The position numbers and the translations under genes were made by a program. A stretch of 63,350 nt of DNA, filler included, from Sluysia triapertura (taxonomy: Eukaryota), in NCBI GenBank assembly GCA_046118255.1. It is 5 parts of 5 records of this genome, joined end to end, with 100 filler letters (N's around TTAATTAATTAA, not from the genome) between each part and the next. Parts side by side here need not be neighbours in the genome. Positions count along the whole stretch, not along the records: positions 50,763 to 63,350 come from JBJNIA010096774.1; 4 more parts are not named here. One strand, written 5' to 3'. Numbering within the stretch: the first letter of the stretch is position 1; each line of letters opens with the position of its first letter. Below, one piece after another: positions 11,606 to 63,350 of this stretch. The notes under the pieces were generated by a model, which saw nothing but the letters and a program-made list of their open reading frames with translations, was not told the DNA's origin and did no database searches.

Positions 11606-11639
11606 CACCATAAAAAGGGTTGCGTAACATACGCATAAA

Positions 11640-14757: not shown

Positions 14758-16100
14758 ATGAATATCTCTGATAACTCAATAAATGATAACGACAATACTA
14801 ACATAAAATTAACTGAATTTCAAAACCGACGTTTGTTATCATTTCCAAGTAAAAATTGTAATCAGAATTTAATGCCTCATTTAATATGTACTTTATTAAG
14901 CGATGTTGATTATCATACAGTTTATTATGTAATGTCATTATTGAACATAAAGCATTGTCAATGTTTAGTATATGAATTAAAAGTTTCACATAATAAGCAA
15001 GTAATAACTTTTGATGTTGATACTTGCGAATTAATAGAAAACCAAGATTTATGAAAGTTAATAAAATTTATTCATTGTAAAACTCAATTTATAAAGATCT
15101 TCAATAATATTTCGTTAATATTTGCATTATTTGTTACCATTATTTTAAAGAACCAAAATGAATACTCTATACAACATTATACCAAAAATGCTCTTCAAAT
15201 TACGTCAAATGTTTAACCTACTCATTGTTTCTCAATGCATCAATAAAATTTTTGTTAATTAATTCCAGATTAACATTTAGTAAATTGATAGATAACTATA
15301 TCATATCCAAAAGAGTTCCTTCTTAACTTTGATGCTGCAAGTCTATTTTCTTTAAATGATCAAAATTTAATCTTAATGATATTCAATTAGTATTCTATAA
15401 ATGTGTCATGATGAAAAGTTCCCATGAGTATATTCAACAATATTGTTCAAGTGATAAGATGTATTATGACGTTTCTGCTAAAAGCGAAGATCAAGCATTA
15501 AAGATCGAGTTCTGTTATTGAAATTACAACTTGTAAAAAATCATGATAAATGAATGAATGTGAAGGAAGCTTCAAAATTAGAAAATGCTAATGTTCATCT
15601 ACTAAAAGAGTTGGATAGCCCGCAGTATATACTGAGTCATATTATGACGCTATTTTGTACAGCATCATCAATGAATTCAAGAGATTTTCAATTAGTTCCA
15701 CCACGGCTAAATATGATCCTTTATCCAAAGTCAAAGGTTTTAAACCAATCTATTTCCAAGTCATTCTTCGACACAATTTCTAACAATCAATTACGAACAG
15801 TACAATGCACCAGCGAACTCGATTCTTCTAATAAATGAATAATTTATGGATTACACTGCATAATATTGATTTCATTACATATTTGAAATCAATAACAACC
15901 ATGAAATAGCGTCAGAACATAGAATAAGAGTGGATAATTTGGTAACATCACTAAAACATGGAGTTCGACAATCACGCAGACAAGTCAATGCAATCACGCA
16001 GACAAGTCAATGCAATCACGCCAGATGACATCTACATAGACATTGACATTATTCATGAAGAATCTGCAAAGAGCTGGAAATATATCCGATCATAGTTGTA
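14758..16100 (+). pseudogene. Unidentified decayed gene following module B
   Basis: Co-oriented ORF pieces (14758-15054, 15554-15838) with coding-like text between them. 22-bp tandem duplication at 15969-16020. Confidence 0.4.
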
Positions 16101-17429: not shown

Positions 17430-17880
17430 AATATCCCCCCAATAGATCAGGTTTTTGAAAATTTTCTTAATTAGTTTGAGTGTATTTTGTATTTTAACTC
17501 TGGGCCTTATAGTTTCTAAAGAATGAAACTTTTGTAATATGGCATAAAGCCTAGCTGAATAATCTGATTATTCACCTATTAATAACAAATAATAAAAATA
17601 GTTAACATAAAGGATATACAAGTAAATATTATTTACCTTGACGTTGTGGTCCATTAAAATATTGCCAGACGAAGTGGTAGAGACAACTGTAATACTCTTT
17701 AGTAATTCTGTAATTCTTTGTAAGTGTATATTACAAGCTGCTTCACCTTCTTTGCAGATTGTCAATCCATGAACAGAATGAGCGTAGCCACAGATTATTC
17801 CATGCATTAAGGAAGTCCCTTTGTTGTCGGTAGACACATATCAGTTACACGAGCAATTTATATGCATACGATGTACAGGT
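17430..17880 (-). other. Unidentified exon-like fragment
   Basis: Higher-GC ORF 17568..17837 followed by GTAAAT...TTAATAG, a short intron-like sequence. Confidence 0.3.
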
Positions 17881-18599: not shown

Positions 18600-19430
18600 T
18601 GTTTTCGTTGGACTTTGGGCATACCATCAGTCTTGTCAGTTGAAAATTCCTTAAATAAAAATAATTAAGTCAAATAATTGTCTATAATAAAAATTAAAAT
18701 TTTAATTGTGACGTTATTAGTAATATCGTAATCTATTAACGATTAGTGAAAGGCAATGTGGATTGTGATTGGATGTCCAATCAAATCAAAGCAACTGAAT
18801 CAAATAAAGAAATGGAATAGATTTAATTTTTGGTTTTGCGACTGTCAGTAATTGACAGTTAATACGATAATAAAGGCTTTATTTGAATTAAAACTGTCAC
18901 TTACTAGCAGTTGCTAATATAAATTGTGTAGTGATATTAAATAATGATGTTAATAATAAGACTAATAATAAAAATGACGATAATCATAATGAAATGTATT
19001 TTAAAATAATAATAATAATAATATAAAGTAAAATGACAATATAATACAAAAACTCTTTTAAATTCTTTCCTTACATGATACTTTCTTTTATTTCTTTATT
19101 AAAAATGATTAAGAAGTGTGAGTTTAATGTTTTTCAAAGAGGTTGATGATTGAGTGTGAAAGGATTGAGAACTTGAAATGTTTTAGATTAATTTTAAAAT
19201 GTATATTTGATAATTTGAGATGTAAATTGTGATTCTAATGTTGTGAAATTGTGAATTAAGAATGTTTTAAATGAAATTTAAAATGTACATTAATGTAAGT
19301 ATAATTTTGATGTTATGAGATTGTGAATTTACAATGTTTTGAAATGTAAAAAGGTTTTAATGGATCTGAAAAAATAGATATTTCATGTGAAGTGGTAATT
19401 TGAATTTTAAGTGAAAAGGTTGGCCACCAC
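18600..19430 (-). repeat. Twin-hairpin module, copy C
   Basis: Start TGTGGTGGCCAACC (rc at ~19418-19431); 23-bp inverted repeat 18838-18915 (19/23); palindrome TGATTGGATGTCCAATCA 18766-18783. Confidence 0.75.
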
Positions 19431-19989: not shown

Positions 19990-20783
19990 TATGGTGGCCA
20001 ACCTATTACATTAATAAAATTATATCCTAAATACTTTATACATTTCATCAGAAACATTCCTTTTACATAAGTTTTGCCAACATAACACTCACCTTCAAAA
20101 CCTACCTTTTACATTCTAAAATCAACATGAAACGATATTAAACTAAATCAACACATTGTATATAAAACCATATTCCCTAACATTTTAACGTTCCCATATT
20201 TATCTCTTTTACATCCACTAAAAACATCTTCATCCGTTAAAATCAATCAAACCCACAATCGCATAACATTCAAACCACAATTACATTCAAAACCATTAAA
20301 TTACATTAAAAAATTCATCTAAAATATTTTATTCTCCATTTCTCAACAATTCAATCACAATCACATTCGAGATTAACTAAAAAACATCTTCAAAGCAATT
20401 CAAACATTCGACATGCACGATCTTTTATCATTAAATCCTAACAACCAAACATGACTCTCTTTCAAAACATTAATGCACATTTATCACTCACTTTAACATT
20501 TATACTATTCCAAAGTCCTTAAGTCATAACCTTCTACACTCTATTAACATCTCCGGTTAGAAACATTATTTTATTCGCAACATCAATGTATCTGTAAAAT
20601 CCATGTAAAATAATTATACCATTTTTAAATATTTAAATCATAAGTTTCTACATCATAATTTTAACCTCTAAACCACCAAAGATATCTAGTTTTTTTAAAT
20701 AGATTGTGACATGTTCAGAAGGTAAAGACATAAAAGAAAGATCATGTTTAAGTCACAGAATACGGAATTTATGCGTTTTTGGG

Positions 20784-20821: not shown

Positions 20822-21716
20822 TGTAGTGGCCAACACCCATAATTCAAAATTTTCTAAAATCTCACAACTTTTAAATCACAATCACACTTAACATCATCAA
20901 ATCACAACAACCAGTTCACAAAAAACATAACATCTAAATTAATCACATTTCACATTATCGAATTACATTAACTGATTCATCATAAACAACATTCGACATT
21001 TATATTATTTTAACAACATATCCATCTTAAACAACTCGTCTAATAGTCTCTACCATTCATCTCACACCATACTTTGACAATTAATACGAAACAATCCATA
21101 ACATTCACTCAAACCAAATTACAATCACAACACATAATATTTAAATCACAAATGTATTAACACCATCCAACAACATTAACAAGTACCTGAAACATAGAAA
21201 ACATTTACGCTACAATCACGAATCAATTACACTAATTCAAACCCATCGCTTCTACACATAGCCATTATCAACAATCCACAATAACATTGTAAATACGCTG
21301 AGATTTATCTCGTAATCATCTTTTAAATTTAATAAACCATAACCTTTTAACAAACTTCTCAAACCATTACATTCAATGTATAAACCGTATTTTCAATTAT
21401 AAAACTTAAATAAATCTCAAGAATTTATTCTAACATTCTTTATTTTACTTACAACTCAAATCATTCTCTCATTTTCATAAACTAAATTTAATACAGCTTT
21501 AAAGAATTCATTGCCTTATGATGAAGCAACAACGATAACTTAAGCATGGCATACCACGTTACCGTTGCTCCGTCACATAATTTCAATAGTGTTATTTCTT
21601 ATCTTATTTTAATATGTAAGAAATCAAGACATAGAAAAAAAAGATCATGTTTTTAAAGATTACAAGAAATTTTATGTGATTTACTTTTATTTGATAATAA
21701 TAATAGCAATATTATT

Positions 21717-21749
<33 letters not shown>

Positions 21750-21980
21750 GTTATTATTATTAACAAATTAAAATAAAATTAATTCAATGACGATCAATCT
21801 GGTTGGTACCATCATCAGTGTTGACACTATACGTTACATTTTTCATTAAAGTGCCACCACTGATGATGGTCAATCATCAGTTTTATCGGTCTTGATTTGC
21901 CATCAATATTTCTTGCACACCACCCAATCAGAGTTCATACTATTAAATATTCTTTCCGAGACTCTGATTGGGTAAGTTAA
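20822..21980 (+). repeat. Twin-hairpin module, copy E
   Basis: TGTAGTGGCCAAC start; ATT tract; IR1 21808-21870 (19/21); IR2 21922-21973 (13/13, ACCCAATCAGAGT). Confidence 0.8.
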
Positions 21981-22154
21981 ACAATATTAATTTTATCTAA
22001 TTAAAAAATTACAATAGTCACTCAATGTTTAATTTTCAATTTTGGTCCAACACATCTTTATCAAATACAAAAAACATTTACATTCGAATAGAATTATTTT
22101 TCTATGGTTTTCATGTGTGAATTTTAACGCCGAATATTGATTCAAATTATAGTT

Positions 22155-24637: not shown

Positions 24638-24669
<32 letters not shown>

Positions 24670-25839
24670 GCTGGGCTTTTCTTAAATTTAAACCTACGGC
24701 AAATTAAATACTGAACAGAGTCCGATTACAGTAAACGACTTACAACGTATAGTTGGCGTTTCTGTAACTTAATGTTAATATATTTATTCAAAAACCCATC
24801 TAATACATCTCTCTCTTAGCAATTACTTAAGAGGGTCTTATATAATCTTATCTAAATTAAAATTTATTGAATACAATAAAAAAATTCAACTAATAACGAG
24901 TTTATTCAATAATGATTTATACAATAACCAAAAGGCAATCAAAAAGTCAAAAAATCAAATAATTATTTTATGATTAAAATCATTGTGAAATCTTTAATCA
25001 AATCTCTTCAAATTTTAAGCTAGAATTTCCCTCTCACTATATCGCGCGGTTCTTACAATAAAATAGTAAAATTGAAATTTAAGTATATTTTAATATTTTG
25101 ATTATTAAAATAAAAATACCCTTACAATAAAATATTTAGGCTTGAAGGGACTGAAACAAAACTGGAACGATTTAATAATTTCAAAATAGCGCAACAAAGC
25201 GAATTGAAAATTTGTCACTATTAATAATTTTAAAAATGACTAATGTAAATTGTTGTTCAATCCAAAATTAAACTGGTTACTCAGTTAAACTGATGCTAGT
25301 TTATATACTAGTCATAAGCCAATAGGAATCGATGAAAGGTTCTAGAACATTTTAGAAGCTTCTATTCTGTTTTTTGTAAGCAAATTTTCTTTTTTTCAAA
25401 AATAAATATTTTTAAAGTGATTTAAACATTTTAAATGATTTTTAAATAATTTTAGAATGTTTTAGTAGCATTTAACATGATTTTAGAGGGTTGTGATGAC
25501 AACCTAACATTATTATTACTATTGCTAATGCTACTATTTTATTCCGTCATTAAAATTTTAAAATAATTATAACTATCCAATCAAATATATATATCGATCC
25601 ATTATCAGCTTCAAAAAAAATAATTGATTTAAAGTTGAATATAACATCAAATGCATTTTTTGAATTTATAGATCATACTAACTTCAAAATTGTTTTTGGT
25701 ATCACTAGAAGAAGATCTTCACTGGAATTTAAATTTTAAATATGTCTATGATTGATGGGGGAAGATTTATTTTTAGAAGGTAATAATATTATTGAATAAA
25801 TATGTAAAGGTAATATCAAAATTATTCAATGTTTAGTAC

Positions 25840-26466
25840 TAAACTTCAAGTTAAATTTAACGATGAAGATCAAGATAAGATAAAACATACTGAATGGATA
25901 TTCGTGAAATTTCAAATGTCATTCTTTACTGCCTAATATTAGTGAATATTTGTTTAAATTTCAAAGACACAAACTTAAATCGAGAATACAAAGACTACTA
26001 CCGCTTTTCTCCGAAAAGAAGACTTAGAGTGATGTTTCAGGATGATTTTAATTTAAGACCTAGCTCTAAAACAAACCCTAATTTTGTAACAAATATTATC
26101 AATCAATAACAAATATTATCAATCAATATTCAATCATATGAACTAGATGAGTTTTGGCTAATTGATTAATTGGCCTGAAAGCAGTCAAAATTTTATTACC
26201 ATGGTTTTGTGAAATTGGCTTTTCAGCATTAACTGAAATCAAGTCCAAAAAGCGAGAAAGAATTCTTAAAATTGATGATGAAATGCGAGTTTGTTGAGTT
26301 TGTTTGTCGTCCTTGGACCCTCGGTGGAGTCTAATTTGTTCTCAGAAGCAAGCTTATTTGTCGCACTGAATAAATTTTTATGATTGTTGTTGCTTGTTTT
26401 ATTATTTCTCTGAAATCTCGCGATACATTTGCACATTTTTCGCGACACACAGTTTGGGAACCACTG
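25840..26466 (+). mobile_element. hAT (Charlie/Buster-like) 3' end with right TIR
   Basis: AVKILLP..CEIGFSALTEIKSKKRERILKIDDEMRVC and QKQAYLSH*; terminus CGCGACACACAGTTTGGGAACCACTG. Confidence 0.85.
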
Positions 26467-27362: not shown

Positions 27363-27462
27363 NNNNNNNNNNNNNNNNNNNNNNNNNNNNNNNNNNNNNN
27401 NNNNNNTTAATTAATTAANNNNNNNNNNNNNNNNNNNNNNNNNNNNNNNNNNNNNNNNNNNN
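27363..27462. other. Artificial contig linker
   Basis: 44 N + TTAATTAATTAA + 44 N. Confidence 0.98.
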
Positions 27463-30956: not shown

Positions 30957-31900
30957 TGTGGTGGCCAACCTTATAACCTTAACAAATTTTACTAAAATTC
31001 CGTCTTAAACATATCAAAATCTCACAAATCTTTAAAATACACACTACACATTTTAAATCTAGTAAAAACCAAGCCATCATATCTAAAATTATACCCTTTA
31101 ACAATATACCACAACCTTGTAAAATTCATCACAATTATTTTTATATTTCATTTCTTTGCAAATCCACAAAATCAAATACACCCTCAAAATCTACAATTCA
31201 TATTCAAAAATTAATATAAAACAATATCAAACTAAATCAACACATTGAACATAAAACCATATCCTTTAACATTTTAACATTCACATATTTATCCTCTCCA
31301 CATTCACTAAAACAGTTCATCTGCCAAAGTCAATTTATATTCACAATCTCATAACATATAAACCACAACGACATCCAATACCATCAATTTACATTAACAG
31401 ATTCATCAAAAATATTTTACTCGACATTCATAACAATCTAACGACAACCACATTCGAAATTATTTACCCAATACCTTCAAATCAATTCGAACATTTTTAA
31501 TTCAGCATTTGTTATCTAATTACCAACAGCACAAAAAACAATATCACTTAAAATTAGCAAGAGAATAAATTAGATTTTTAACATTATATAATCACCTTCT
31601 GAACATATCAAAGTTAGACTATAACTCATCTACTTTTATACGTCAAGCTACGCCTTTATAACATATTAAAAATTCATAATTTAATATTATCTTCAACCAG
31701 AAATAAGACTCCATGCAGAGTATTCTAACTTTCACACAAAAATCCTTTGCGTTTCAAAATATTTTTAATTCACATTAACAAATAGCATTAAGAAATTACA
31801 CTATACATTATAATTATTCCAAAGCACCAGCGTCACTATCACACCTTGAAGTCTTAACCAATACATTTGACATTAAGTCGTAACACCACAAATTCACTAT
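30957..31900 (+). repeat. Twin-hairpin module, copy F (5' part only)
   Basis: TGTGGTGGCCAACC at ~30957; AAACTAAATCAACACATTG..ATAAAACCATAT shared with copy D. Confidence 0.75.
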
Positions 31901-33763: not shown

Positions 33764-34486
33764 TTAAATAAAAGGATGAAATACTTGTTGTTTATTTTGA
33801 GTCGATTTAATGTCCGTAACACAAGGTTTTTGTGCAGTCCGACTATTCTCGAAGATTGATAACCACAAATTGACAATTCGTATGTTGTATGTGCATAAGG
33901 ACAATAACTTCTTTTTTTTAACACATGTATCGCATTCGTTAGTAGAGAATGGGCAAACTGTGATCATTTTAGCTTTAAAATCATCGTGTTTATAATCATT
34001 ATTATTGATATTGTAACTTTTAGCATTAAAATCATTGTCTTTATAAACATCATTATTGATATCGTAACTTTTAGTATTAAAATCATCGTCTTTGTATTGC
34101 TTAACATCAATACAGCAATTCTTATATCTTTCGATTCTATGATTATCAACTTTTTAATGTTTAACATAATTGTTATTATCTTTGTCTTTGTAGTACTCGA
34201 CGTCATTACTACTATCTTTACGTTCTTTAGCTTTAACATCATTAACTTCATAGTACTTAACATCGTTTAACAATTTAAAATTGATTACAATTAATTGTAC
34301 AAATTGAGACAAAATAATGCTACAAAAAATGGTTGAGAATACTCTCTTTAAAATTTTTATTGTCACCAAATTATGAAATTGAGTATAATTATTTTGTGCT
34401 AACTCTACCGTTTTAATTTTAATTTTTGAAACATCATAAAAGCAATTGTGATTAATAATTTTGTGAACCGTTATTTTTAAAATCAA
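33764..34486 (-). pseudogene. Asp/Asn/Lys/Tyr-repeat ORF with one in-frame stop, following module G
   Basis: ORFs 34154..34486 and 33764..33967 are in the same frame, 62 codons apart. The 51-bp tandem unit encodes YDINNDVYKDNDFNAKS. Confidence 0.5.
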
Positions 34487-34519
34487 TATACAAAATTTTT
34501 ATTGTTATTATGAGTAAAG

Positions 34520-35305
34520 CACTCTGATTTGTCGTCAAACCAGAGAAACATAAAGTAGCGATGATAACAAATAATGTGCATCAGCAAATGAACGAGAGAT
34601 AAACCACCACCTATGTTGACATTCATTTATACACAGTGATTAGTTATGTCAGCATGGATGGTGGTAATTGCTGATTTATTTCAAAATAAAAAACTTTTTA
34701 AAAATAATTAATAAAAATAAAAAATTAAAATGATAACAATAATAATACCAACAACAGCATTATTATTATTCTTATTACCACATAAATTCTTATTTCTTAT
34801 GTTAACACGACCTTTTCTTTTATGTTCTTTATTTTCTTGACATATTTGAATTTAGAGAAGATTAAATATGTGATAAAGATGAAGATAAAAAAGGTGATAA
34901 TGATAATAATAAACACAAAAAGTCTTTGTCTTGTAATTTAAACATAAACTTTCTTTTTTTGCTCATAAAGATATTATCAACATATTTAAATCTATTGAAA
35001 TAGGATAGCTTTTAAAGGAAAGATTATGAATTTATGATGTTAAATATCAAGATATGTTGAAAAGATTTGAAAGTGTCTACTGATTAGTTTCGAATGTGAT
35101 TGTGCTGGAATTGTTAAAAACTGAAAAATAAAATGTTTTGAATGATTTTTTTCTGTAATTTAATGGTTTGGAATGTAACTGTGATTTGAATTTTATGAGA
35201 TTGTGTATTTAGTTGGCTTTAACAGGTAAGATTGTTTTTAATGGATGTAAAAGAGAGAGTTATGAAAGTTTTCAAATGTTTAGAAGTATGGTTTTATGTA
35301 CAGTC
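34520..35305 (-). repeat. Twin-hairpin module, copy G (5'-truncated)
   Basis: IR1 34603-34665 (17/20); CTCTGATTTGTCGTCAAACCAGAG; GT-rich body homologous to 36590-36720 and to the rc of copy D. Confidence 0.75.
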
Positions 35306-35944: not shown

Positions 35945-36852
35945 CTTGATTGGTTGTCCAACCAGGAATATATAAAATTACTGAAGAATTCATTCTGGTT
36001 GGACAACCAGTAATAATGTTCAATCTAAGTGACTGAGAAATGAGCCATCATCAATGTTGACGTGAATTAATAGGCAGTAATCAGCAATGTCAACATTGAT
36101 GGTGGTAATCACTGATTTGCTTGTAAATTAGCAGTTTTAAATAAAATAACATTAATAACAATAATGATAAAAATGGTAATAATACAATATTATTATTAAT
36201 GCTTTACGTGATCTTACTTTTATGAATCTTAATTTTCTAGAAATTTCAAAAGTTAAAAGTAAAGAAGAAAACAATATTTTCTTGTATCTTTAATTTTTCT
36301 TATATATTTAACACTCTTAATGATACTTCCGCCTAATGTTAATTGTAAATAATTTTAGGTCTTAAATATTTTGAGGCACTATGTATGTGGAAGTTAGAAT
36401 ATACTTTAATGTTCTAAATATGATGTTTCTAGCTAAAATGTTATTAAAATGGTTATGACTTAAATACTATGAAATAGTGTAAACGTTAAAAAGAGTAATG
36501 AATGTACACTAGTGTTTTGAAAGAAAGTAATGTTAAACTGTTGGGATTAAATGGTACAAGATCGTGAATTTAGAAAGTTTGGATTGTTTTGAAAATGTCT
36601 GTTGATTAATTTCGAAAGTGATTGTGCTTGAATTGTTAAAAAATGAAAAATAAAATATTTTGAATGAATTTTTTATTGTAATTTGATGATATTAATGTCA
36701 CCGTAATTTATATGTTACAAGGTTGTAGATTTTAGGAGTAAAAGTTGTGTTGAGTAAAACTTATGTAAAAAGGATGTTTTGATTAAGTGTTTTGTGAATA
36801 TGTTATACAAATTTTTAATAAAATTTATTAAGAAAATAGTTGGCCACCACAC
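35945..36852 (-). repeat. Twin-hairpin module, copy H (most complete)
   Basis: rc TGTGGTGGCCAAC at ~36839-36851; IR1 36045-36105 (16/17); IR2 TGGTTGTCCAACCAG/CTGGTTGGACAACCA (15/15). Confidence 0.8.
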
Positions 36853-36979: not shown

Positions 36980-38069
36980 CTAATTTTCATTTTCTTCAGA
37001 GGTATAAAAATGAGTTAAAATTTCCGTCTTTAACAAATTGAATATTTTTCGAATTGTGTGTGCATCTTCTTCTGCTGTATGTAATTGTCCTTGTATATCT
37101 TTACCTAAAAATTCCTTAGCCATTCTTTTAAGTCCTATGAATTGATCAGAAGTGTCTAACATTGATTTAATAACAGGAGATGTTGCCAGATCAATTCTAC
37201 GGTTTAGAGGTAAGTGTTTTAAACGAAGCACTTTTAGGTCATTTCGTAAATCGGAACCTACTAAGATAAAGTGTTGTGCAATATGATGAGCAATAATTAT
37301 AGCTTTTGTTTCGTCCATCTGTCCAGTTAATTTCTTATTACTGAATTTAGTTATCCAAGGAACATAATTTTTAACTCTATTTGCTGGAGTTACCAATGTG
37401 TTTAATATTGTTTCACCACTTTCATGAATCACACAAATACTGCCAAGGCTTAATGAATTATTATCTAGTTGCACAAATTCACAATCTATAAAAACGAATT
37501 GTGGTCTTATTGAAATCAAATTTGGAATGAAATAATTCATTTCAACATGTTCCCATGGTTTGTAAATTTCTATCATAAATGAAGTTAATCCAGGAAGTAT
37601 GTGTAAATAATTCCATTTATGTAAAATACCGTAAAATTTGTAAGAATGATTTATAATCATTAAATGATTAAAACCTCGATGTTTCTTATGTCTTGATCTT
37701 AATCGTATGGATCCTTGAGCTACATGAATAATAATGGTTTCATTGAGTTCACTTAGAGATAACATTGGATATAAAGACATATTATACACTTTATGATGAA
37801 ATTGATGTACTAGAATGGATCTTCTTGCACGTGTTGTATATTTAAGATTGTTCGGTAAATAAGTATGTGATGAGAATATTTTAGTCGAATTCAAACTTAA
37901 GTAGTTTCCTATATAAGAATTTAAAGATTGATAACATTTTATAACTAGAGAATACCTGCGCATATTGAAAGTCTTATATTTATGTTTACCTTCTTTAGAA
38001 ATTTTACACTTAATATTTTTACTCATTTCATCCATTTGCATGGGATTTATATTTTCTTGCACTGATGTC
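36980..38069 (-). CDS. DEDDh 3'-5' exonuclease (REX4/ISG20-like) with an unrecognised basic N-terminal region
   Basis: FIDCEFV (ExoI D,E), LVGSDLRNDLKVL (ExoII), LKRMAKEFLGKDIQ..HTAEEDA (ExoIII H,D). Unbroken 360-codon frame; TTTTTAG acceptor just upstream. Confidence 0.9.
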
Positions 38070-38910
38070 TAAAAATAAATTTTTAAATCATATATATATA
38101 TGAATTTTTATGATAATGATTTTTAATAATGAATTTTGTAATAATGAATAATAAAAATGCTTGAAATTACAAATTATTTTAGTACTTTTTAAATATTTAA
38201 TGATCATACATTAACTGTTTATGTATTACATTTCTTTTCAATTATTTTTGTTTTAATTGTAAATTTTTGTACATTTTTTTGAAGAAATCGATTTATTAGT
38301 CTCAATTTGTAAGTATTGTCGATTGTATATCACATTTAAGTTATTGTACATCAAACGTGACCGTGGTAACCAACGGAAAACCAAAATGAAAAAGATATTC
38401 AATTGCAGAAAACAGGCTGTTGCAAATTATAAGCTGGAAAATAAATTTTTTAACAGGGGCATCTATTGTCAATAAATTTAAGATGCCGGGTAAACGAAAT
38501 TGTCAACAATCTTCTTTTCATAAAAATCAGAATATGAAAAAAGATTGCGCAATAAAAATAGCCTTTCAAATATAAAGACATACGAAATATATCCGCACCT
38601 ATGCGAATGGATATCAAGAAATAGGACGTTGAACAATACAATAACAAACTTAATGCTGGAAGAGGTGGCACTAAAAATTAGAACTTTAAAGCCTCCAGGC
38701 CATGGATATTGCTATGACTTTTAAATCAAAGGTTTAATTTAATAATCGAATGACCAATGTTATGACTTTAAATCAAATGTTTAATTTAATCAATAATTCA
38801 ATGACTAACTTTGTGTTATAAATAACCAATCACTTTATAAATAATTGTTTTAAATCAAATGTTTAATGTTTTTAAATCAATAATCACGTATTTTAAAGGA
38901 ATAATATATA

Positions 38911-39010
38911 NNNNNNNNNNNNNNNNNNNNNNNNNNNNNNNNNNNNNNNNNNNNTTAATTAATTAANNNNNNNNNNNNNNNNNNNNNNNNNNNNNNNNNN
39001 NNNNNNNNNN
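38911..39010. other. Artificial contig linker
   Basis: 44 N + TTAATTAATTAA + 44 N. Confidence 0.98.
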
Positions 39011-40469
39011 TAAAAATTCTTATTGATAATAAATTATATTAGGATTTTTTGTTTAATAGTACATCATTGTCTTAGTTTTGATTTGATATAATAGTTGTTG
39101 ACATAGTTATAAAAAAGGGATTACGGTAAAATTATATTTGATATACTAAGGATTGAAATTATTATGATTTAAACTGAAAAAGATAATAATAGTGAGTCTT
39201 AGTAATTCACAAGCTTCAAAGACGCAACAATATTTCACATCTCTACAATTTTACAGTTTTACATTTTTACAATGTTACTATCGCATAATCACTTAACTTC
39301 GTATTTATGTATTTCTATAACTCGATAAATTTTACTTTTAAATATTTATAATATATTGAAAACAAGGAGATATACCACTTCTATCTCTAAAAGAGCATCA
39401 TTAATATCATTCGGAAGACGCATGCAATAGTCAAGATAGTTCTTACTCCTCATTGAGTGATATTCGACCAACCAATACTCATCATCACCATTATCTTCAT
39501 CATTATCAAATCAAAAATTCAAATGGTCAATCACCACTAGTGATTCATAAAAAATCGTCTTCTTCACCACCATCAAAACTTCAGACTACTGATTCATTAA
39601 AAATATGATATTAGCTCATCGTCATTGTCGGATTTAAGCACCTGAACACTGAGACCACCACACAAAAGCCAGCACCAATTTTCACCCAGTTATCTACATT
39701 CAAATAAATTATATCGTTGCATTAAACCGTCATCAAATCTAACGTCAATGCATCATCGTAAATCATTACCAAATTTGTTCCTACTGGATCATAAGCGTCA
39801 GAAACCGCACTTATCAATAAATTCAAAACAATATAAAAAATGAAGCAGAAACCATATTCGAAATAATGGATTCATCTTCCAGATTCCCCGTTTGTAGTGT
39901 TGGCATTTGTTCTGAGCAAAAAGATGAAGGACAATAAGGAATGTTGCTGAATGAAGTGCGCTCCTGCTAACAAATTTAGAGTATTCAAATTGTACTCAAC
40001 GAGAATGTTCAATTTAATTAACTCAAAACAAAATTGATAGTTCTATGTGATATTCATTGACTGCATTATTTAAATACGTGTAACAATTAAATAGCTTTAT
40101 GAAGTGTCACTATAATTTTGACCTGTTTTTTTGAACTTACTAAATTTATTGTACCAAATAAGTAATTTGCATTTCTTGAACTTTATGTTACAGAAGGTAA
40201 AGTCAAGTTGAACTAATGAGCTCAATGATTTGTTTCTTAATTAATTTACACTAAGATAAAATGATGCTTAAAACAACATTTGATCGACATTTGTTATTTG
40301 TATTTTCTTCAGTTATATGTATTATTAATATAAATAAGATCTATATATTAGAAAAATTTATAATAAACAATTACTTTTTTGTTTTAATAATATTAATGGC
40401 GTAATAAGTCAAAAATAGTTTTGGATAGAATTTTTGGTTGCATTTGAAATATTTTAAAAATATTTAAAA

Positions 40470-40855
40470 ATGAATTCGGACCAGGTGCGTTATTCAAATG
40501 ATAGTAAACCTCGGAATTATGGAAATCAAGTTTATAGAGGTATCAAAGGCTTTGAATATTCAACAGAATGGGCTGATTTAATACTTAGTTTAATAGGGTT
40601 GATTAGGGCCTTACAAGCTAACGCAAAATTTATTGCTATTCCAAGAAAACAGATCACTGCAAAAGCTTATCGTCAAGTGGTGTGCAGATCAAAGCATTAG
40701 AATATTATGATGTTATATTTCGAAATATTGACCCTCAAAATTTATCTGATTTATTTATGTACTGCACGGGTTTATTTCCATTTATGTCACCAGCTACAAC
40801 AAATGTAAGAAAACCACTTTTTGATTCATACTACAATTACTGTTTACAATTGAGC
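40470..40855 (+). pseudogene. DOP1: Dopey/DOP1 N-terminal fragment
   Basis: DSKPRNY..IKGFEYSTEWADLI..LQANAKF..IPRK, frameshift with the CLHPALP motif lost, then KALEYYDVIF..DLFMYCTGLFPF. Truncated after about 125 codons. Confidence 0.9.
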
Positions 40856-40907
40856 GTTGAAGTCAAGGACTTGGTTGCTGAAGATACAGCGACTCTCGTT
40901 AAAGGTA

Positions 40908-53024: not shown

Positions 53025-56000
53025 TCAGTCAAATGTATTAATAATTTCAATTAATGACACTATAGCACCAGTAATTCCAAATACTACACCGAATGTAATA
53101 ACACAAATTCGATAAATAACTTGTAATCGTGACAGTAATGTCCATTTCAATTTCAATGAAAATAAACATGGGAAAATAAAAGTAAGACAACACCCTGTTA
53201 TGGAACCAATAAAACTCATTAACAAAGCAAAATGTGGTACAATCATTGCCAGAAATAGCGATGCAGTTTGAACAGTTGTTCGTGATAATGCCAACCAAAA
53301 GCATTTAAAAATGGGATTTTTTACTAATGCGGATTTGAAGTGCGGAAGAATGAAATTATCTATTCTTTCACAAACCACAAACATAGTTAATGGAAGACTG
53401 AAAAATTATTTTACATAAATATACTACTTTTAAAAATCAATAAATAAATTTGAATGGAAAATAGTTAATATAAGTAATATTAAATTAACAAAGTATTATA
53501 TTAAAGCTTAAAAAGTTGCATTTCAGCAACTGAAATTTTAACAATTTATTAATGATTGTTTTAATGTTTATTGAACTTTATTTGATGGTTTCTACGTAAT
53601 AGTATAACTTATAATTTTAAGTGCTTAATCTTGTGCTATTTATAGATTGTACTATTAGAACCTATTTTATTTTGATACTGAATAATAATAAGAATCAAAC
53701 TGATTTTAAGTTATTGAAACTCTTAAATAACAATTTTCATTGTTGTTTTAGTACGTTATGTACAAATTTCTTGAACTGGAACAATGTGCTATTTTAAACT
53801 CAACCTCACTCGAATATATAGTTTTTGATGGTTATTTTAAATTTAGATTTGGCGTTAATAAAATGGAAATTGTTTTTAATAATCGATTTTAATTGGTTTG
53901 AATGAACTGATTAGTTTGGGAGTTTAAAGTAATATGATTGGTTGGAATAGATCAGTGTACGATATGTATATTATATTATACTGTTTGGGTTTATATTATT
54001 AAATTCATGTTCCATTATTATAACCCTAAAATAAATGAAACATATTTTCTAAATAATTTATTAATATATTAAATAATATAAAAATAAATAACACACAATT
54101 ATTTGGTTTTCATATTCATAAACATCATACAAATACAAAATTGGAGTAAATATACTTTTTTATTCTTCTTAATATGAAGTAGTATTACATAAATTTTATA
54201 TATTCCATCAAAAACTGCAAATTTATAAATAATGTTTTGATACAGTGAACTTATTTAAATGCTTGTTGAGTGTAGTAATGTCGATTAATTGTGAATATCG
54301 ATTAATTTAGTTTCATATTTGTCATAGCTGGTTCTGAAAGTATGTAATGTATTTTTTATTTTAGTAAATATTTTTCATTGATTCATTTTGTCTTCATTAC
54401 ATACATCATTTAATAAATTATCGATTTTTTAATCAATAATATGCAAGGTGATGACGATTTTGGTAAAACTGGAACTGTTTTATCAAATATGTTTCGTTAA
54501 CTCAATTTGTGCTTGATTTACTTTATACCAAAAATGATCCAATAGAAAACATGCAGAGGAATATAAAATTTTTTATACATATATAAATAGCTACAAAGAA
54601 ATGGTATAGTCATTACGTTAGAAAATATTAATTACACAAGTCATAAATTAGCCATTAAAATTTTAATCAATGAATCCGACACAATTTGTATGCAAATTAA
54701 TTGATTATTCATTGGATATTTTTGCAAATTGTAAATACAGAATTATAGCGTTTAAGAACCTAATATAATATTGTATAGAATCATGAATAGTCACATTTAA
54801 AATTGACGATTTAGCAAGATACCAACTAAAATTGAACTTTAAATGTTTTTATTTTAATATTGCTAAATTTAAAGTTACTGATTATTTGATTGCAGTTTTT
54901 CTAGTAAAAGAAATAATTTGTTTAAATGCACCAAATTATACCGGAAAAATTGTTTTTGATCGTAGTATCAATTGGAGCACGAAGAATTGCACAAATACAA
55001 TTTAATTGTAAGATTGAAATTGTGGCTGATCACATTGTTGGTTTCTTTTTAATTTAGTGTTAACCAAAATGAACTTATTGAGGAAAATAAATTGTTGGAA
55101 ACATAATCCAGCAAATTCACTTCGTATCACTAAATAATCCCTTACTAATTGCGCACCTTATACTTTAATACTCACAATTTATAACATTCCTACATCAGAC
55201 ATTCATATCCGATACACAAATATCGAGGAATACGTGAAATTATGCGAAAAGAAAAGAATAAATACAAATACAAAAGATTCAATAGAATTACAAGCATTCT
55301 TAATTCACAGAATACTTAGAAAAGTTCATTCTCCTTTATTATCAAGATTACCACTCAAGCAATTCATGAACACTTAAATTTTAAAATTGATGAATAAACT
55401 ATTTAATTATGTAAAAAGAAAACGTTTTAATTAAGATTTAGAAAGAAAAGAACAAACTATTAAATCACCAAATAATTCTCCATGCCAAAAATATGTTTAA
55501 TTTACGCAAGATCATGTAAGTTATGAAGAAAAATTTAGAAAGAAATTTTGCGATTTAAAATAATAATTAAAAACACATGGCCGAAATCTAGGCCTTGTTA
55601 TTTAACATAACGTAATAAATGCAAACCCAATCAAATGCGAATTGGCTATTTCATTTCATCTCAATCATCCTTGTGGAAGTCCACTCCTCACTATTTTAAG
55701 CAAAAAATGATGCACCTAGTCATTTTAAAAAGGATAAGAATGCCTTAAATTCAATAAAATTAAATATCAAATATAGGATATTCATGACGAAAGAAATCTG
55801 ACCGGAAGTTTAATATTAAATCATTTTTCAGATAAATTCGTCATACAGAAAATGCAAACATACCTAATATAGAACTAAAGTACTTCCTATCTTAGTCATT
55901 TAAGATCATTTTCTAATAAATTACAAACAAATCCAATATGTAATAACTCTGCGCATCCATATTTTACTCATGGTAAACAAACATATTCCTTAATAAACCT

Positions 56001-58664
56001 TCAACTTCTGTAACATTAATTTTAATACTCAACATACTAATACACCTATTTATTCCAACCAAACAAAACTCACTATTAAAAGCCATTTCTAATTTACTTA
56101 CACCAAATCCAAATTTAATTAACTGTCATAAACATATTCGCACTCGATCAATCCACGAAATTATCTGTTGTACATTTAATTATTGGATTCTTAAAACGAA
56201 TAAATACAATTCCAATTTTTGTCGTATTTTTCAAATATCAAAATCATACCATGCTTTGATTTAAATATCAGCTGAAAATATAATATTTAATACTTTTTTA
56301 TGAATTAGATTATCTTACAATAATTAAAATTTACTACATAGAAAGTATCCGTATTTCGTTGAACGTAATTATCGAATATCTTCGAAAATAAGTTTTGAAG
56401 TATACATTTCTGAACTAATCTCTTTTGTGATAGTTGAAAATTTGTTACTACGTTGTTTTTCTTGCTTTATACTTCCTTACAATTCCCGAAAAAAAATTAA
56501 ACATTTAGCTTCAAAACTAAGTTTATTCACGAAAAAATGCCATAATAATATATAAAATACAATCAAGATACGTGAATATTGACGAAAATTCAAATTAACG
56601 AAGTTACGAGATTACATTGGTTATACAAATGAAAATGTTAATATATAATAGATAAATGTTTTATATATAATAAAAATTAACACCTCTATTTTCCGTTAAC
56701 AATTAATTTATCGTTCTAAAAATTATACATGTAAATAATATAGAAAAAATCCTTGATTTAAATGCAGTTTCGTAGGAAATTAACTTCTTGTATTTTTCTT
56801 ACATTTACTATTATTCATACGAATTTTCTATTGTTGATTTATTTTGCAGCTCTTGTACTTGTACAATAATCTAATTTGAGTATGCACAATATCGCACACA
56901 TAATTATGATAATGGAAACATCATCGAATAATATCTGGTAGTACAATATATCACAAGTATGTGATGCATCATAGTTACACAAAATTATGGATTTATCTTA
57001 TTACTAATCACTTCTTTTCAACCAATCAAGATGAGTTTAATAAATGAGTAATTCGAACAAACTTAATATCAAATATCTTAGCAAAACGTGATGCAAATAA
57101 TTCTAGAGAAATACCAGTGACTTTCCATACATAATGGATATGCAAAATGCACCCACATGGGTATAAAAAACACTTATTTTCTTCAATTCAACTGAACAGA
57201 TTGATATTAATATTTTATTTCTACTATTTTGGACTGTGAAACTACCCTAAAGACATTTCTTTCGAAAGTATCCTAGAAGTAGTTGTATCGAAATAGAAAA
57301 TCGCATTTTTGACCATAACGAATGACCTTTTTCGTTGTTCACCATTGATATGGATCAACAACACAATTTAAACTCAGAAACATATTCCAATTCATATTTT
57401 AATAAACTGTCATCTATAATTTGCATTATTATTATCATTATTATCGTTAATTTTTATATCGAGACAGTAAAAAGACAGTAGATGTCTTCAGGTCGGTGAT
57501 TCGTAACAACGTGGCCGGACTTTATTTAATGTTGATTTAAATTCTACAAATTGAATTAATTTGATTTATATAAAACATGTTTTTATTTAATATAAAAAAC
57601 AAGAAATTATTAAAATATTTGACTGATTTGATTTTGACATTTTTGAGATACAAATAATGTTAATAATAACCTGAAAAAGGTATTTATAATAACAAATATT
57701 CCAACAATTTTCTGAAATACATGTGAATCAATATTTGATGTACATTGTTGATCGGTTTGTTTTCCAAATATAACCACAAACAACGTTGGCATTGTCAATT
57801 TAACAAAAGCTGCCAAAGCAAAAGCTACTCGCATCATTATACCGAATTGTTCCGGTTTTTTCATACTACCTGAAATTTTTTTATCCAAATATCATTTACT
57901 TACAATTATAAATAGGACAAAATTAATTAAAATATAATACATACCTTCTACACCAACAAAAGCAGCATGTGCACAATATGAAAATGTTATTATACCGATA
58001 CTAAGAGGTATCTTTTTCCATTCTAATCCTGGGAAATTTTTCCATGACAAATTTTCACCATTGACTACAGCAGTATATATGCAGAAAGTTATCAATCCTA
58101 CATTAGTACCTAGTAGTCCTATAACTGCAACGAAACTGAACCAAGATACAATAGATAATTTTTTCAACATAAATAATGGTAGTGGTAAAAATCCCAGAAT
58201 GAATGAGCACCAATAAATGCTTACATTACCGAAAAATAATGATGATACTTGCTAATAATAATAATTATTATTATTATAATGATATTAACAATATTTACAT
58301 GTCCAACAACACTCAATAACACCAGATACAATGTGTTAGCACCAAACATTTCAACAAAAGATACTATTGTAACTAATTGACTGCCAAATCTGGGCCATAC
58401 AGCTTGTCCAATGGCAGGATAAGAATGGCGAACACGTTTTTTATTTCTGGGCAATTCTGGATTTTCTTGAATAGAATTATTCTTCGATGTGACATTAAAT
58501 TGATCGGAACAGTCATATATATCTAATAATTCTTCTTCTTCGTATAAACAATCAATGATCATTAAGCCGGTCGTGCATGCTGCATAAGCAGCTAAAATAA
58601 TAAAGGCAAGTGCGACGTAACTGCTTTGAGCAAGCGCATACGGAACACCTAATATCCCGATTCC
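53025..58664 (-). CDS. Vesicular inhibitory amino acid transporter-like (SLC32A1/VGAT-like), 5'-incomplete; exons 58664-58299, 58251-57945, 57869-57671, 53397-53025
   Basis: GIGILGVPYA, IDCLYEE, RVRHSY, PLSIGIITFSY, EGSMKKPEQF, VPHFALLMSFIGSITG. GT-AG introns of 47, 75 and 4273 nt; 1245 nt spliced without internal stops. Confidence 0.92.
54241..55100 (+). mobile_element. Possible highly decayed pogo/Tigger relic in intron
   Basis: TA-CAGTGAAC end followed by scattered coding-like fragments. Confidence 0.2.
55150..55900 (+). mobile_element. Probable Penelope-like GIY-YIG relic in intron
   Basis: KTHGRNLGLVI*HNVINANPIKCELA and HDERNLTGSLIL resemble the G.T.R.L..R..EH and E....R.ILE blocks. 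Confidence 0.35.
56780..57350 (-). mobile_element. Possible KDZ/HMGXB3-like transposase relic in intron
   Basis: Ordered fragments YPCGC..., LFASRFAK, YDASH, FHYHNYVC and STRAAK*INN. Confidence 0.3.
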
Positions 58665-59850
58665 CTGAATATTAAATTACATAACAAATTCCAATGTATT
58701 ATATCAATTTAACGATTGCGTTATTATTGAAACAAAAATTTAGGAATATACGAAATTTATCAATGTTCAAATTAACCCTCTCCTTAATAGGCAGGCTGCT
58801 CGTACGCAAACAAAGCAAAAAATAAAAATTATTTATTTTGTTTTAGAACAATAATTTAGCAAGAATAAAATTTAAAAACACATTCTTCTTGCATTTAGAA
58901 TGGAGTACTTTTATTACCCTTCTGTAAGTTGAGATCTTGCAATTTGAAGATGTCTCTGTGTCTATTTTTGATGCAAAATGAAAATTTCAATTGGAGTTTT
59001 GTGCAAAATGTTTCATTTTAACCTCATAGTAGAAATTGTACAGTAAAAGAACTTCCATAAAACGAACTCGTAAAATGTAATATTTTCTCTAACTTGATTA
59101 TTTTTAGTACAGAATAACTCATATTTTTACCTCTAAAATAAAATACAGTGTCTTCCTTCTTCCATAAGTTGAACTTCTTCAAATTTGAAATTTTCTCAAT
59201 ACTTACTTTAGATGTACAATGGAAATAATTCTTCATAATTAGACCAAATAATAATAAATTATGTGAGTTTCTATGTCCTGCGCATCTATATGAAATAAGA
59301 TATTCATAACACAGATAAGTGACACCCGTTTCCGGAGCAATTCGTAAGATCAGCCGTAACTCACAAAAGTTTCGTTGCGTTTTAGAAACATATTTAATAT
59401 TAATTCATGTATTCATGAATGATTAGTTTTATCAGATAATTCAGTGTTTAGAAGTGTGAGGATTGGAATGGTAAAAACATATTTTGATCATATTGACTCC
59501 ATTTTGATTACGGAAAACATTTTGATCATTTTGACTACATTTTGATTATATTGATTATATTATAAATTATACTATTTGATAATTTATTTTATTAATCTTA
59601 TTCATTATTTATTTCTTAGCTAATATTTTTATTTATTCATTTTATAAATATATTTATTATTATTATTATAAAAATAAAGAAGGATTTAAAACATAATTAA
59701 AATTAAAATCAAATCCTAAAAATGGAAACTTGATTTAAAAAAAAACTAAAATTGTCTAAATTTTTTTTGATTACAGATTTTGTTTTATTAAACTAAATTA
59801 CTATATTTTGTTTTAATAAAACAATTATTTAAATTTTATAAACACCGCAA

Positions 59851-60560
59851 TATGCCGGTTAGAAATTCTGTATATAGTTGGTGATTTGTGCAGAATTTCG
59901 AACCGACATTTGCAAGAAAATATTAATCGTCAGATCATCCTTCGATTTTCCATGAAAGTAAGTTTTCTCATCTTCTCACCGTAAAAGGGAGAAGTAAAAT
60001 CAATCTTTTTGTAATTTTGCTTATACCGTAATACGGATAAGTTAAAATCATTTAAAATCTTTCTACTAAATTCATTGAATTGAATTTAAGTAACCTAAAA
60101 TCATTATTGTTATTACATACACTTTGTATTTGTTCTTTTTTCTTTTTGTTTGCTGTGAATAAAACTTAGAACTGCTTACTAGAGTTGTCTTTTATTATCA
60201 CGTAAAGATAAAATCATTGTTAGACGCTAGACCGTAATAAGGCTAACTCAAAATCATAAAATAATATTAGAAGTTTTCAACAATTAGACTGTAATCGGCT
60301 AATTTAATATCTTATTTTACCAAAGTTAGACCGTAAAAAGGCTAACTAAAAATCATTCAAAATTCTCATAATTAAAAGTGTTACAACAACTCCAGATTCT
60401 TCGTAAGTACTCCTTATCTCCAGCCAATAACCATACGTGATTCTTCCTTAGTGAATCTTTCTATTTAAATCCTAACAGGCCGCCGTCGCTCAGACTTAAG
60501 TCGTTTTCTGTTAGGCGAACTCTCTCCAGGTTACTATTTGCATTGTAAGTTAGCTGAAAA
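59851..60560 (+). repeat. Structured repeat, copy 2: long hairpin, five bulged-A hairpins, AAAATCA motifs and terminal hairpin
   Basis: Hairpins at ~59855-59908, 59972-59994, 60020-60041, 60226-60248, 60282-60304, 60324-60347 and 60471-60515. Confidence 0.75.
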
Positions 60561-63350
60561 CCTCTTTGCAGAAGAAACGCTACATTGTGTTTAAATAATA
60601 GGACAACACTATCCAGAAATACTTAACTGAAGAGCACTAGGTAATGATTCGAAATGAGGTTCTTAAATATCAAATTGATGCAAGAGAATATACTGAAGAA
60701 CAATATTCAGATTTGAAAGACCAAATAAAAGACACTTGAATCATGATTCCAAGTATTCGAGAAACAAATCACGTAAGCGAAAGAAAATCTAAGATATTAC
60801 ACCAATTATCGATGTAATTATGACTGTAATTAAAAAGTCATTTTGGTAATACACCATCATTAAACAAAAGCATTAATTCGACTAAGCAATGAAAAGGATT
60901 GAGCACGATTTCCTTATTATCAATTTACAAATCATTTTATTTGATCATCAGTTTTTATGGATAAAATTTTTATTCGAATAAAATTACTAAATTTTTTTTG
61001 TTAAGATGATTTTACTCGTAAAAACAAAATCTTAAAATATTACGTAAATTCTTTTTATAATTCATTTTTAACACCGATTTAATGAGGAACAAAATTATTT
61101 GTTAAATAAATTAAAGGCCAAAAAGGCTTTACTTTAAAAAATTAATACATTGTTTTATATCTTCATCTACTAATTCCGAATATTCTTATTCTTAATTTTG
61201 TTGCGTATTAATTCTGATTGTTTATTAATTAAATTGTTGTTGACCAGTATTGAAGAATGTTAGACATTAATTTTGCTATTTTTAAATAAATAATAGGATT
61301 CACTGTACGAAATAGAAAAATAGCAAACTTATTTTGTCATTTTTAGTTTCAGGAATACCACTTTACGTGCAAATCATTGATTGTAACCGTATCTAACCAC
61401 AAACACAAACAACAGTTTATTCAGCGCTATTATTTACTGTAAGTACTCAGCAACTCTTAAAATAAATCATACATTATAATATTTGTGAAACAGAAATAAC
61501 TTTGTACACACATTTTATAATCGTGCACTGATTGGACAGTTTATGTTAGTTATTTGTGTAATATTAAAACATAATAGCTTATCTTATTATCATTATGGAT
61601 TCTTTAAATTATTATTCGTTTTCGTTTTTAATGAAATAACGTATAAATGAAGTATGCTATTGTGATGAGTGAGAAAATTGTACAATAAAATTTTTGTAAT
61701 CATTTTATTAGAAAATTTCATTTTTATTTTTAATTTTTTGTAAAATAATAAAAAGTTTAACAATTTTATTTTGGATTTAATTATTTTATGATTTTGTTTT
61801 CGGTTTTTATATTCGAAAGTATTTCCCCCAGAATTAGTGACACAACAAAAACAAGAAAAATAAATTTTGAAATCAGCTTTTAAACTTTTATAGTTGAGAT
61901 TTAGAAAAGAAAGTAGTTAAATAAAAAAAATTAGTTGAACACTAATCAAGCCTATTTGGACATCGATTGAAGAATAAATATTTCCGGATTTTGTCTTTTT
62001 TGTATAATTTTTTCACACTTCTTTAAAGGAAGGATTAAAATCCACTCAAATTATAAATTATAATTATTAATTTTAATATTGGTGATTTAGATTTACTCGT
62101 TAAGACTTCAATCTAAATATCACATACAAAATTTTCATTAAAAATAAATAAAATATCTTCGAATTTTGTCTTTTAGTAAGTACAAAATGCAACTTTGTAT
62201 ACATAATAAACATGACACAAAGCTGGCATAAGAATTTCATTTTTAAGATGATTTTTCGAATAGGAATACATAAAGTTATTAGTTTTAACTTAATTAAATG
62301 ACTTTAACATTTTCAAAAATGTTTTCTATGATATACACATTCTAATCTAGAAACGTAGAGACTATTGAACTTATCTAATCAGTACCTTTCCAGTCATACA
62401 TGATTCCACGATTCAAAATTCTTAGTTTAACATTGCGTTTTAGTACTCTCTACATTGTTATTCTAACATAATTTCGGACTTCAAAATATAAACACAGTAT
62501 CTACAGAAAAAGATCGTTTAAAAAATTTATAAGGTGCGGTCTATACACGGGATTTTACGATACTTAAAATGTTTTATTTTCAAATTGTTTTCTGTGTTCA
62601 GCTTTTTCTTTCTAAACAATTATGGTAAATTTTATTTCTTCGGGTTCGCCTGTGATATACTATATGTATCGCACGAAGACGTATTCACAGAATATCAAAT
62701 GTCAAAAACTATGATAAGAATTCCTTAATCTTGCGGCAATATAAATTTAATTAACTCTATTCTGAGGGTTTATATATTGTTAGGTTTTATTTTAATCTAA
62801 CTTAAACAATCAATTAATTCTGTCAAATAACTATCAAATTATATCAAATACTCTTTTAACTTAATCCTTTAATATATTTAGATTGACTAGTTTTATTCTA
62901 CCTTGCTTAGGATTTTATATCACTATTGTAAGGATGTAAATAATCTTTTAATTTTTATTTTGTGTTTTTTAAAAAATTTTTAATTTAAAGAAATTTATAA
63001 AAATATTATAAAATTTATTCAGTATAAAAAATTATTAAATTAATTAATTTAAAATAATTTTTATTATTATTATAAATAAAAAATTATGACAAACGAAACT
63101 TCTCGAAGGAAGTTTGTTTTATTAAATTAAAATAATAAAAATGTCTTTATTCATATATAAAGACTTGGAAGACATCATTAATTCACAACAAAGCATAAAG
63201 TCAATTCGTCATCAAAAACAATTTTCAACAATCGTCATTTTAGTCTGGTATCAAAATATTATTAGCGGTACAACATCATCATCAACAAATAATCTACTTC
63301 TCTTCGCAGCAATTTCAATTTGGTATTTGGTCATTAGTGAGATCCCCGCA

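Follow-up and report, generated by a model that had tools for sequence, protein, structure and literature searches.

An array of bulged hairpins within a probable solo LTR of a Ty3/gypsy-like element in Sluysia triapertura

Hairpins with a single unpaired adenine on the 5′ side form an array in the genome of Sluysia triapertura, and this array probably lies inside a solo LTR of a Ty3/gypsy-like retrotransposon, with the hairpins serving as repeated Gag-binding sites on the RNA of the element, a reading to which we assign a probability of roughly 0.7. The array is carried by a 1116-bp unit with a TG start and a CA end (59455–60570, + strand; copy B), which is bounded on the left and on the right by the tetranucleotide GAAG (59451–59454 and 60571–60574, +). 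Four relatives of this unit (copies A, C, D and E) were recognised in the window, that is, the whole stretch of 63,350 nt that was analysed. Copy B is quite probably a solo LTR, and the covarying RNA-type structure that it contains is real. Should the unit be a solo LTR, the specific function modelled for the hairpins, as Gag or packaging sites, falls just short of an even chance, and roles of the array in transcription, export, localisation, translation or small-RNA silencing are the alternatives. Within the retrotransposons, the Ty3/gypsy group is the candidate source.

The hairpin array of copy B

The four bulged-A hairpins quoted in the first-pass annotation are present on the + strand at 59972–59994 (B1), 60019–60042 (B2), 60282–60304 (B7) and 60324–60347 (B8). 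A strict scan, modelled on the finding itself and demanding an outer stem of at least 5 bp, a 5′ bulged A and an inner YY/GG, recovered four hairpins in 59851–60380, as against a maximum of one in 2000 dinucleotide shuffles, 27 of which gave one. Over the whole window, the scan returned 10 hairpins on the + strand, including 7 in copies A and B, and 1 on the − strand. Folded singly, the four strict hairpins each reached z values of −3.8 to −4.3. Of the eight hairpins counted in that annotation, the bulged-A shape occurs in five (one of them imperfect), and the other three are two plain hairpins and one long hairpin. The imperfect member, B6 (60225–60248, +), has two mismatches, C-A and C-T, and reaches only z −0.1 when folded. 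The plain hairpins at 60064–60092 and 60185–60211 (+), the first lacking the 5′ bulged A, are without the bulged-A CC/GG shape, whereas the long hairpin (59852–59909, +) comprises 23 positions and folds at z −6.0 on the + strand and −7.9 on the − strand. The loops of the array hairpins are variable and 6–7 nt long.

The linker AAAATCA occurs six times in the 510 nt of the array, where about 0.35 occurrences would be expected from the 43 on the + strand of the window. The earlier statement that most hairpins are followed by this linker applies to copy B, where it stands behind four of the five bulged hairpins (B1 and B2 among them) and behind both plain ones, and breaks down in copy A, where it follows none of the three bulged hairpins. 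The whole array region folds at −98.6 kcal/mol (z −2.6) and −98.9 kcal/mol (z −2.2) on the two strands. In tile folding, 59691–60130 and copy C were clearly better than shuffles, with copy B alike on both strands, and neither copy A nor the 3′ half of B gave a folding clearly better than shuffles. Three tiles elsewhere in the window (8801–9200, 21601–22000 and 34401–34800) are likewise much more stable than their shuffled versions, at z −4.9 to −6.0.

The + strand had been assigned from U-G wobbles, an argument that survives when terminal pairs are counted (9 G-U versus 2 A-C, p=0.03) and lapses when they are left out (4 versus 2, p=0.34). The long hairpin has one C-A beside its two U-G pairs, and an unbiased helix scan, in which chance helices are included, found 1 G-U versus 3 A-C. 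The two strands of the region also fold about equally well. The strand evidence in favour of + is thus weak.

One string in the long hairpin, made up of its loop and 3′ arm (59877–59902, +), resembles the complement of a tRNA 3′ end as far as the T-loop, with one base in excess, and it sits in the middle of the LTR-like unit. It has two matches in the window versus 0.08 expected, the second inside a reverse transcriptase fragment, and a looser pattern of the same kind occurs 4 times versus 2.3 expected, which is chance level. A leader that carries captured mRNA downstream of a primer site at 59877, after the model of PMC5131818, was set aside: the string exceeds a tRNA end by one base, a similar string lies inside the reverse transcriptase fragment, the looser pattern is at chance level, and the TG...CA unit with its duplication explains the junctions as insertion sites.

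Related copies, the shared 3′ module and the ends of the unit

The expectation that further copies of the array sequence exist proved correct, as four related stretches in both orientations were found, all of them, like copy B, from within the 63,350-nt window. Self-comparison showed 299–391 to be similar to 60462–60552, and copy A (1–408, +), the 3′ 408 nt of a unit cut by the window start, is colinear with 60158–60570 at 67% identity and carries three bulged hairpins, the 3′ module (309–352) and a CA end. Copy C (11606–11832, +) is a 3′ part found by profile search, with its module at 11743–11787 and a CA 45 nt behind; its 5′ part runs into the gap at 11506–11605. Copy D (24669–25509, −) has 841 bp from TG to CA inside an (AAT)n tract and its module at 24725–24768. 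Copy E (62593–63350, −; module 62649–62691) is the weakest member; the last bases of the window, read on the minus strand, resemble the start of B, so that E would have 758 bp. In a search with a covariance model of the shared 3′ block, D was found at E 2e-4 and copy E at E 0.04, with 12 weaker matches at E 0.4–5. Copy E is linked to the others by structure alone, and its sequence scores are at the null level. A descriptor written from the five copies retrieved exactly those five in the window and 0–1 matches in 30 shuffles. Among the five copies, similarity goes down to 60–67%. Between the 5′ thirds of B, D and E no alignment is possible, and no bulged-A array was found in D or E.

Copy A contains counterparts of three bulged hairpins of B, namely 72–95 for B6, 131–152 for B7 and 166–189 for B8, and also of the plain hairpin at 60185–60211. 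In B7 and B8, two stem pairs each are changed on both sides between A and B, and such compensatory pairs uphold the earlier claim that the shape is kept while the stem sequence changes. In the structure alignment of eight array hairpins, one row of which is off by a base, 90.6% of the cells are paired and 4 of 8 pairs are compensatory. Among 500 shuffles, none equalled the paired share and none the score, 11 the number of pairs and 67 the number of pair types, figures inflated by a control that ignores kinship and by structures derived from these very sequences. One bulge of copy A is a G, and neither the AAAATCA linker nor the GTAA loop start is kept there, so the shape is conserved more than the sequence.

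The stem-loop module of 44 nt near the 3′ end is common to all five copies (60471–60515, +, in B). Here 93.1% of the cells are paired and 5 of 12 pairs are compensatory, with 0 of 500 shuffles reaching this. It is trailed by the motif YGRRCY (60516–60522, +), 49–55 nt before the end. A coding role of the 3′ block was rejected, as C, D and E do not preserve the frame. Inspection by eye against the cores of hammerhead, HDV-like and twister ribozymes led us to drop these readings too, because D and E have not retained the bases that would be catalytic and no ribozyme came up in Rfam. Rfam returned no match at the gathering score in the window, where only weak matches far below it lie around B, A and C. 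Pattern matches in viral contigs (19 + 4 loci) and metagenome contigs (2 loci) were discarded as chance, being confined to the pattern. None of the listed sequencing runs was RNA, and one run contained 0.44 of the words.

The dinucleotide CA stands behind the module in all five copies, at +56 in A, +55 in B, +45 in C, +56 in D and +56 or +54 in E, and the shorter distance in C is matched by a 10-nt gap in its covariance-model alignment. TG...CA ends are seen in B (59455/60570) and D (25509/24669). The similarity between A and B stops at the CA, the downstream score being 158 versus 158±12 for shuffles. The first 10 nt of B (59455–59464) agree at 9 of 10 positions with the reverse complement of the last 10 of A. 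When all 7197 CA dinucleotides of the window were examined for a 9/10 start with a 4-bp duplication 200–3000 nt upstream, 3 had them, the observed case included, and relaxation to an 8/10 terminal match gave 18 of 7197. The terminal motif, a pattern chosen post hoc, has three occurrences in the window, where 0.64 would be expected (2 of 100 shuffles), and all three coincide with predicted ends. The own ends of B match at 5 of 10 positions ungapped, owing to extra T residues near its end, those of D match at 6 of 10, and the 3′ end of copy E does not mirror its start. An alternative start of B at 58951 offers a 5-bp duplication but a terminal match of 3/10. Copy D has (AAT)n on both sides, so its duplication lies in a microsatellite, and only copy B has an informative target duplication.

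Ends and duplications of this kind are made by integrase, and recombination between the two LTRs of an element leaves one LTR without gag-pol. In copy B, integrase would have made the TG...CA ends and the 4-bp target duplication, and LTR–LTR recombination would have left a single LTR between two target copies. A 20-nt tandem repeat of 3.8 copies near the 5′ end (59481–59554, +) would be U3-like, and an AT-rich hairpin with AATAAA in its 3′ arm (59780–59824, +) may be a polyadenylation hairpin. Copy B contains 5 TATA-like sequences (two of them at 59667 and 59837) and 3 AATAAA (59673, 59815 and 60158), while AATAAA occurs 3 times in D and 8 times in E; for the succession of TATA box, AATAAA and GT-rich stretch that marks an LTR, none of these stands out in such AT-rich DNA, and they are not diagnostic. 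No TGG, as would begin a primer site, was found behind any of the five ends, and no purine tract before B or D. Self-comparison revealed no paired LTR inside the window. A TRIM, in which two short direct repeats would enclose a primer site and a purine tract, was rejected, as the first and last 420 nt of B score 32 against a null of 31.5±4.8 and there are no internal direct repeats, although B does contain the primer-site-like string at 59877. No gag, pol, reverse transcriptase or integrase was detected by Pfam on 99 of the 175 stop-free frames of at least 55 aa (111 of the 175 passed the composition filter) plus further frames, no capsid or polymerase ORF in the six frames of 58351–63350, and no ORF in the copy B unit. 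Among the tested defining features of a solo LTR none failed, and those with a clear outcome are the TG...CA ends, the target duplication and the absence of a primer site behind the unit and of a purine tract before it.

Genomic setting and rival explanations

The window is AT-rich, with a GC content mostly of 0.23–0.30, and is interrupted by gaps (11506–11605, 27363–27462, 38911–39010 and 50663–50762), each consisting of two blocks of 44 N on either side of a 12-base linker with stops in all frames. A broken EZH (Enhancer of zeste) fragment at 411–930 (+) covers residues 130–314 of a Schmidtea mediterranea protein, the top match of three (44% identity, E 3.6e-15). On account of this top match the host is likely a flatworm, an assignment that rests on one gene. 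The fragment begins directly 3′ of the CA end of copy A, and it is likely a processed copy, because it continues past the point where two relatives break off. The window is unusually dense in pieces of host genes recognised by Pfam, several of them frame-broken: Sec7, three UNK-like zinc fingers, Ski/Sno and Dopey (1266–2050, −; 4420–5217, +; 14671–15051, +; 17571–17840, −; 40458–40954, +). A stretch at 3702–4462 resembles a piece of a CCA-adding enzyme by eye, without a Pfam match. A TIR_2 + SAM domain gene (48476–50131, −) has a GC content of 0.42 inside a 26% GC region. An intron-containing amino acid transporter gene (Aa_trans by Pfam; 53025–58676, −) has its first recognised exon about 780 nt from copy B, on the other strand, so that B lies upstream of it or in its first intron.

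Other mobile sequences share the window. A broken non-LTR reverse transcriptase (11870–12791, −) is most similar to R2 proteins (E 4e-4); it is oriented opposite to copy C, and some 40 nt separate its end from the 3′ end of that copy. DNA transposon debris was noted at 13378–13605 (−), 38524–38721 (+), 26150–26450 (+) and 62530–62565 (+); it includes DDE_1 and Tc5 HTH matches below the Pfam cut-offs and, by eye, what are presumably a hAT-like C-terminus and a pogo-like end. A DEDDh exonuclease frame (36980–38068, −), open over 362 codons and with one relative of similar length at 40% identity, may be carried by a mobile element. Unrelated to the hairpin units is another dispersed repeat family, with members at 20090–20531 (+), 31179–31504 (+), 35054–35302 (−), 36451–36732 (−), 19155–19381, 13758–13925 and 3066–3241; they are 250–500 bp long with 69–81% identity and are strongly C/A-rich on one strand.

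The first-pass annotation had offered the structured leader of a mobile or virus-derived RNA, or an undescribed ncRNA. Of these, the leader of a mobile RNA is largely right. Mobility is favoured by the TG...CA ends and the target duplication, but the notion of a leader before its own intact ORF did not hold, as the copies are each followed by unrelated sequence. A reading of the ORF behind the supposed leader as the gag of the element was rejected, given the broken EZH behind A and the oppositely oriented R2-like reverse transcriptase behind C. The right flank of B matched nothing and is not homologous to that of A.

Alignable 3′ ends combined with differing 5′ parts would also be produced by a non-LTR or SINE-like retroelement, in which case the units would be its 3′ ends, the module a stem-loop recognised by the reverse transcriptase, and the upstream differences the result of 5′ truncation or of different families. 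The R2-like debris in the window and the (AAT)n behind copy D agree with this, as does the occurrence of LINE/R2 elements in Schmidtea (PMC11410931). We nevertheless regard such an origin as quite unlikely. There is no poly(A) or common repeat tail, and the (AAT)n of D lies on both sides; the start of B mirrors the end of A and is accompanied by the 4-bp duplication. Moreover, the frames upstream of C and E have no R2 match, no relevant counterpart of those upstream of B, C, D and E turned up in the rest of the window, the reverse transcriptase fragment beside C is oppositely oriented, and no tRNA gene as would speak for a SINE was found in the window. The related candidate of a 3′ UTR of an R2/R4-like element received no support from the frame searches.

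TG...CA ends with 4-bp duplications are not peculiar to LTR elements, as Ginger transposons have them too (PMC2836005). A non-autonomous, Ginger-like cut-and-paste DNA transposon, with the hairpins as internal or subterminal palindromes bound as DNA, would also fit the lack of an attached retrotransposon ORF. It is very unlikely, since the same paper gives inverted repeats of 40–270 bp for Ginger1 and 50–180 bp for Ginger2, whereas B, D and E have no long inverted repeats above shuffles, and the Ginger targets, CCGG/CCGT and RTATAY, are both unlike GAAG. The asymmetric bulge and the compensatory changes suit a single strand better than duplex DNA.

An undescribed family of host ncRNAs would account for the strong covariation, as would an RNA virus whose untranslated end, with bulged-A sites like those of MS2 or L-A, was copied many times into the genome, and the wealth of processed, broken host-gene fragments in the window indicates that RNAs are often copied into this genome. 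This is highly improbable in the face of defined TG...CA ends with a target duplication and of five copies whose similarity goes down to 60–67%, within 63 kb and in both orientations. The virus-derived RNA of the MS2 or L-A kind finds no capsid or other viral ORF and no polymerase ORF in the frames scanned, and the likeness is one of shape only; a stand-alone host ncRNA is countered by the insertion hallmarks and the absence of an Rfam match, and the 25 pattern matches outside the window were due to chance. A rolling-circle, Helitron-like element, whose structure would act in single-stranded DNA as a termination or nicking signal, is scarcely plausible: CTAG or CTAA does occur in several 3′ arms, and pieces of host genes abound in the neighbourhood, but Helitrons have a 5′ TC, a 3′ CTRR and no target duplication, whereas B1 and B2 lack CTRR and the ends are CA.

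Likeness to known elements and proposed roles

Published accounts of LTR elements describe ends with TG...CA short inverted repeats and a U5 more conserved than U3 (PMC3601003), LTRs of tapeworm Saci2 with TGT...ACA and 4-bp duplications (PMC12471100), both 4- and 5-bp duplications in mosquito gypsy copies (PMC3026039), and an abundance of gypsy-like elements in planarians (PMC6431247, PMC11410931). Copy B shares with such animal Ty3/gypsy solo LTRs (CsRn1 clade and Saci2; PMC3601003, PMC12471100) the TG...CA ends, perhaps with a short inverted repeat, and the 4-bp duplication, as well as a conserved 3′ against a variable 5′ part and a tandem repeat near the 5′ end, and its start resembles the CsRN1 5′ motif TGTGGYG. 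Unlike those LTRs, four of the five copies end in GCA rather than ACA, and neither gag-pol nor a primer site was seen. As far as the excerpts of PMC3601003 and PMC12471100 go, they describe no bulged-hairpin array and no stem-loop at a fixed 3′ distance. Burro, a giant gypsy-like planarian element, offers a likeness in the probable host group and in the abundance of gypsy-like elements with decayed fragments (PMC6431247); it differs in that none of its ORF domains was found in the window, and it is set beside our copies by description only.

Repeated hairpin motifs in an LTR have a parallel in maize Sirevirus, where PMC4728375 reports fast-evolving, repeated, hairpin-forming palindromes tied to siRNA targeting as a hypothesis. 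That element, in contrast, is a plant copia with the palindromes in the cis-regulatory part of the LTR, and the excerpted description (PMC4728375) gives them no bulged-A shape.

If transcription started in the AT-rich 5′ part of the unit, the array and the 3′ module would lie in R/U5, ahead of the primer-binding site; if the array instead lay in U3, it would still be included in the element RNA, at its 3′ end. On the proposed reading as Gag-binding sites, the bulged hairpins with their A-rich linkers would present many copies of one protein site for packaging. The MS2 operator and the packaging hairpins of yeast L-A are built on a short stem in which a single A of the 5′ strand is unpaired. 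The array hairpins share this short stem and single 5′ A, and they differ in residing in a chromosomal insertion without a capsid or polymerase gene, in their variable loops of 6–7 nt and in one G bulge.

The motif that trails the module matches the complement of GUUCG, the universal sequence of the tRNA T-loop, and all four departures in its first five bases across the five copies would keep pairing by G-U, a pattern to be read against the 52 transitions among the 126 differences between A and B. The motif may pair with the T-loop of a primer tRNA, the weakest of the steps put forward here; a local 3-bp hairpin that it can form instead explains part of the motif equally well. The register would be tRNA positions 51–57, against 48–55 for HIV. 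Searches of the window and of 25 loci turned up no tRNA. In HIV-1, nucleotides 123–130 of the U5 primer activation signal pair with tRNA positions 48–55 (PMC3675109; also PMC13191261), and Ty3 pairs with the T-arm of its primer tRNA (PMC5371799). The predicted pairing would act as the HIV-1 signal does with the T-arm, and it resembles that signal and the extended pairing of Ty3 and Ty1 in being a short T-arm-pairing motif upstream of the primer site. It differs from HIV-1 and Ty3 in being predicted, in a register that includes the T-loop and in having the local hairpin as an alternative.

Maps of packaging and priming signals exist for retroviruses and for the Ty elements of yeast. In open-access full text, no such signals, hairpin array or module were found described for gypsy-like elements of flatworms, and the family may already be annotated as an LTR. 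A solo LTR with structured RNA is in its wider kind ordinary. A bolder generalisation, that a group of flatworm LTR elements carries an in-LTR replication-start module, a covarying stem-loop at a fixed 55–56 nt from the LTR end that presents a T-loop-pairing motif, joined in one subfamily by a tandem array of MS2-like bulged-A hairpins for Gag loading, is rather unlikely; if true, invertebrates would have their own equivalent of the HIV primer activation signal, with many Gag molecules loaded upstream of the primer site. The five repeats of one hairpin shape with swapped stems form a natural mutagenesis series, and this series suggests that what a protein reads is the bulge together with the inner C-G pairs and the length of the stem. 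The 3′ module finds LTR relatives that are missed by sequence search and could thus aid the annotation of unclassified repeats in AT-rich genomes.
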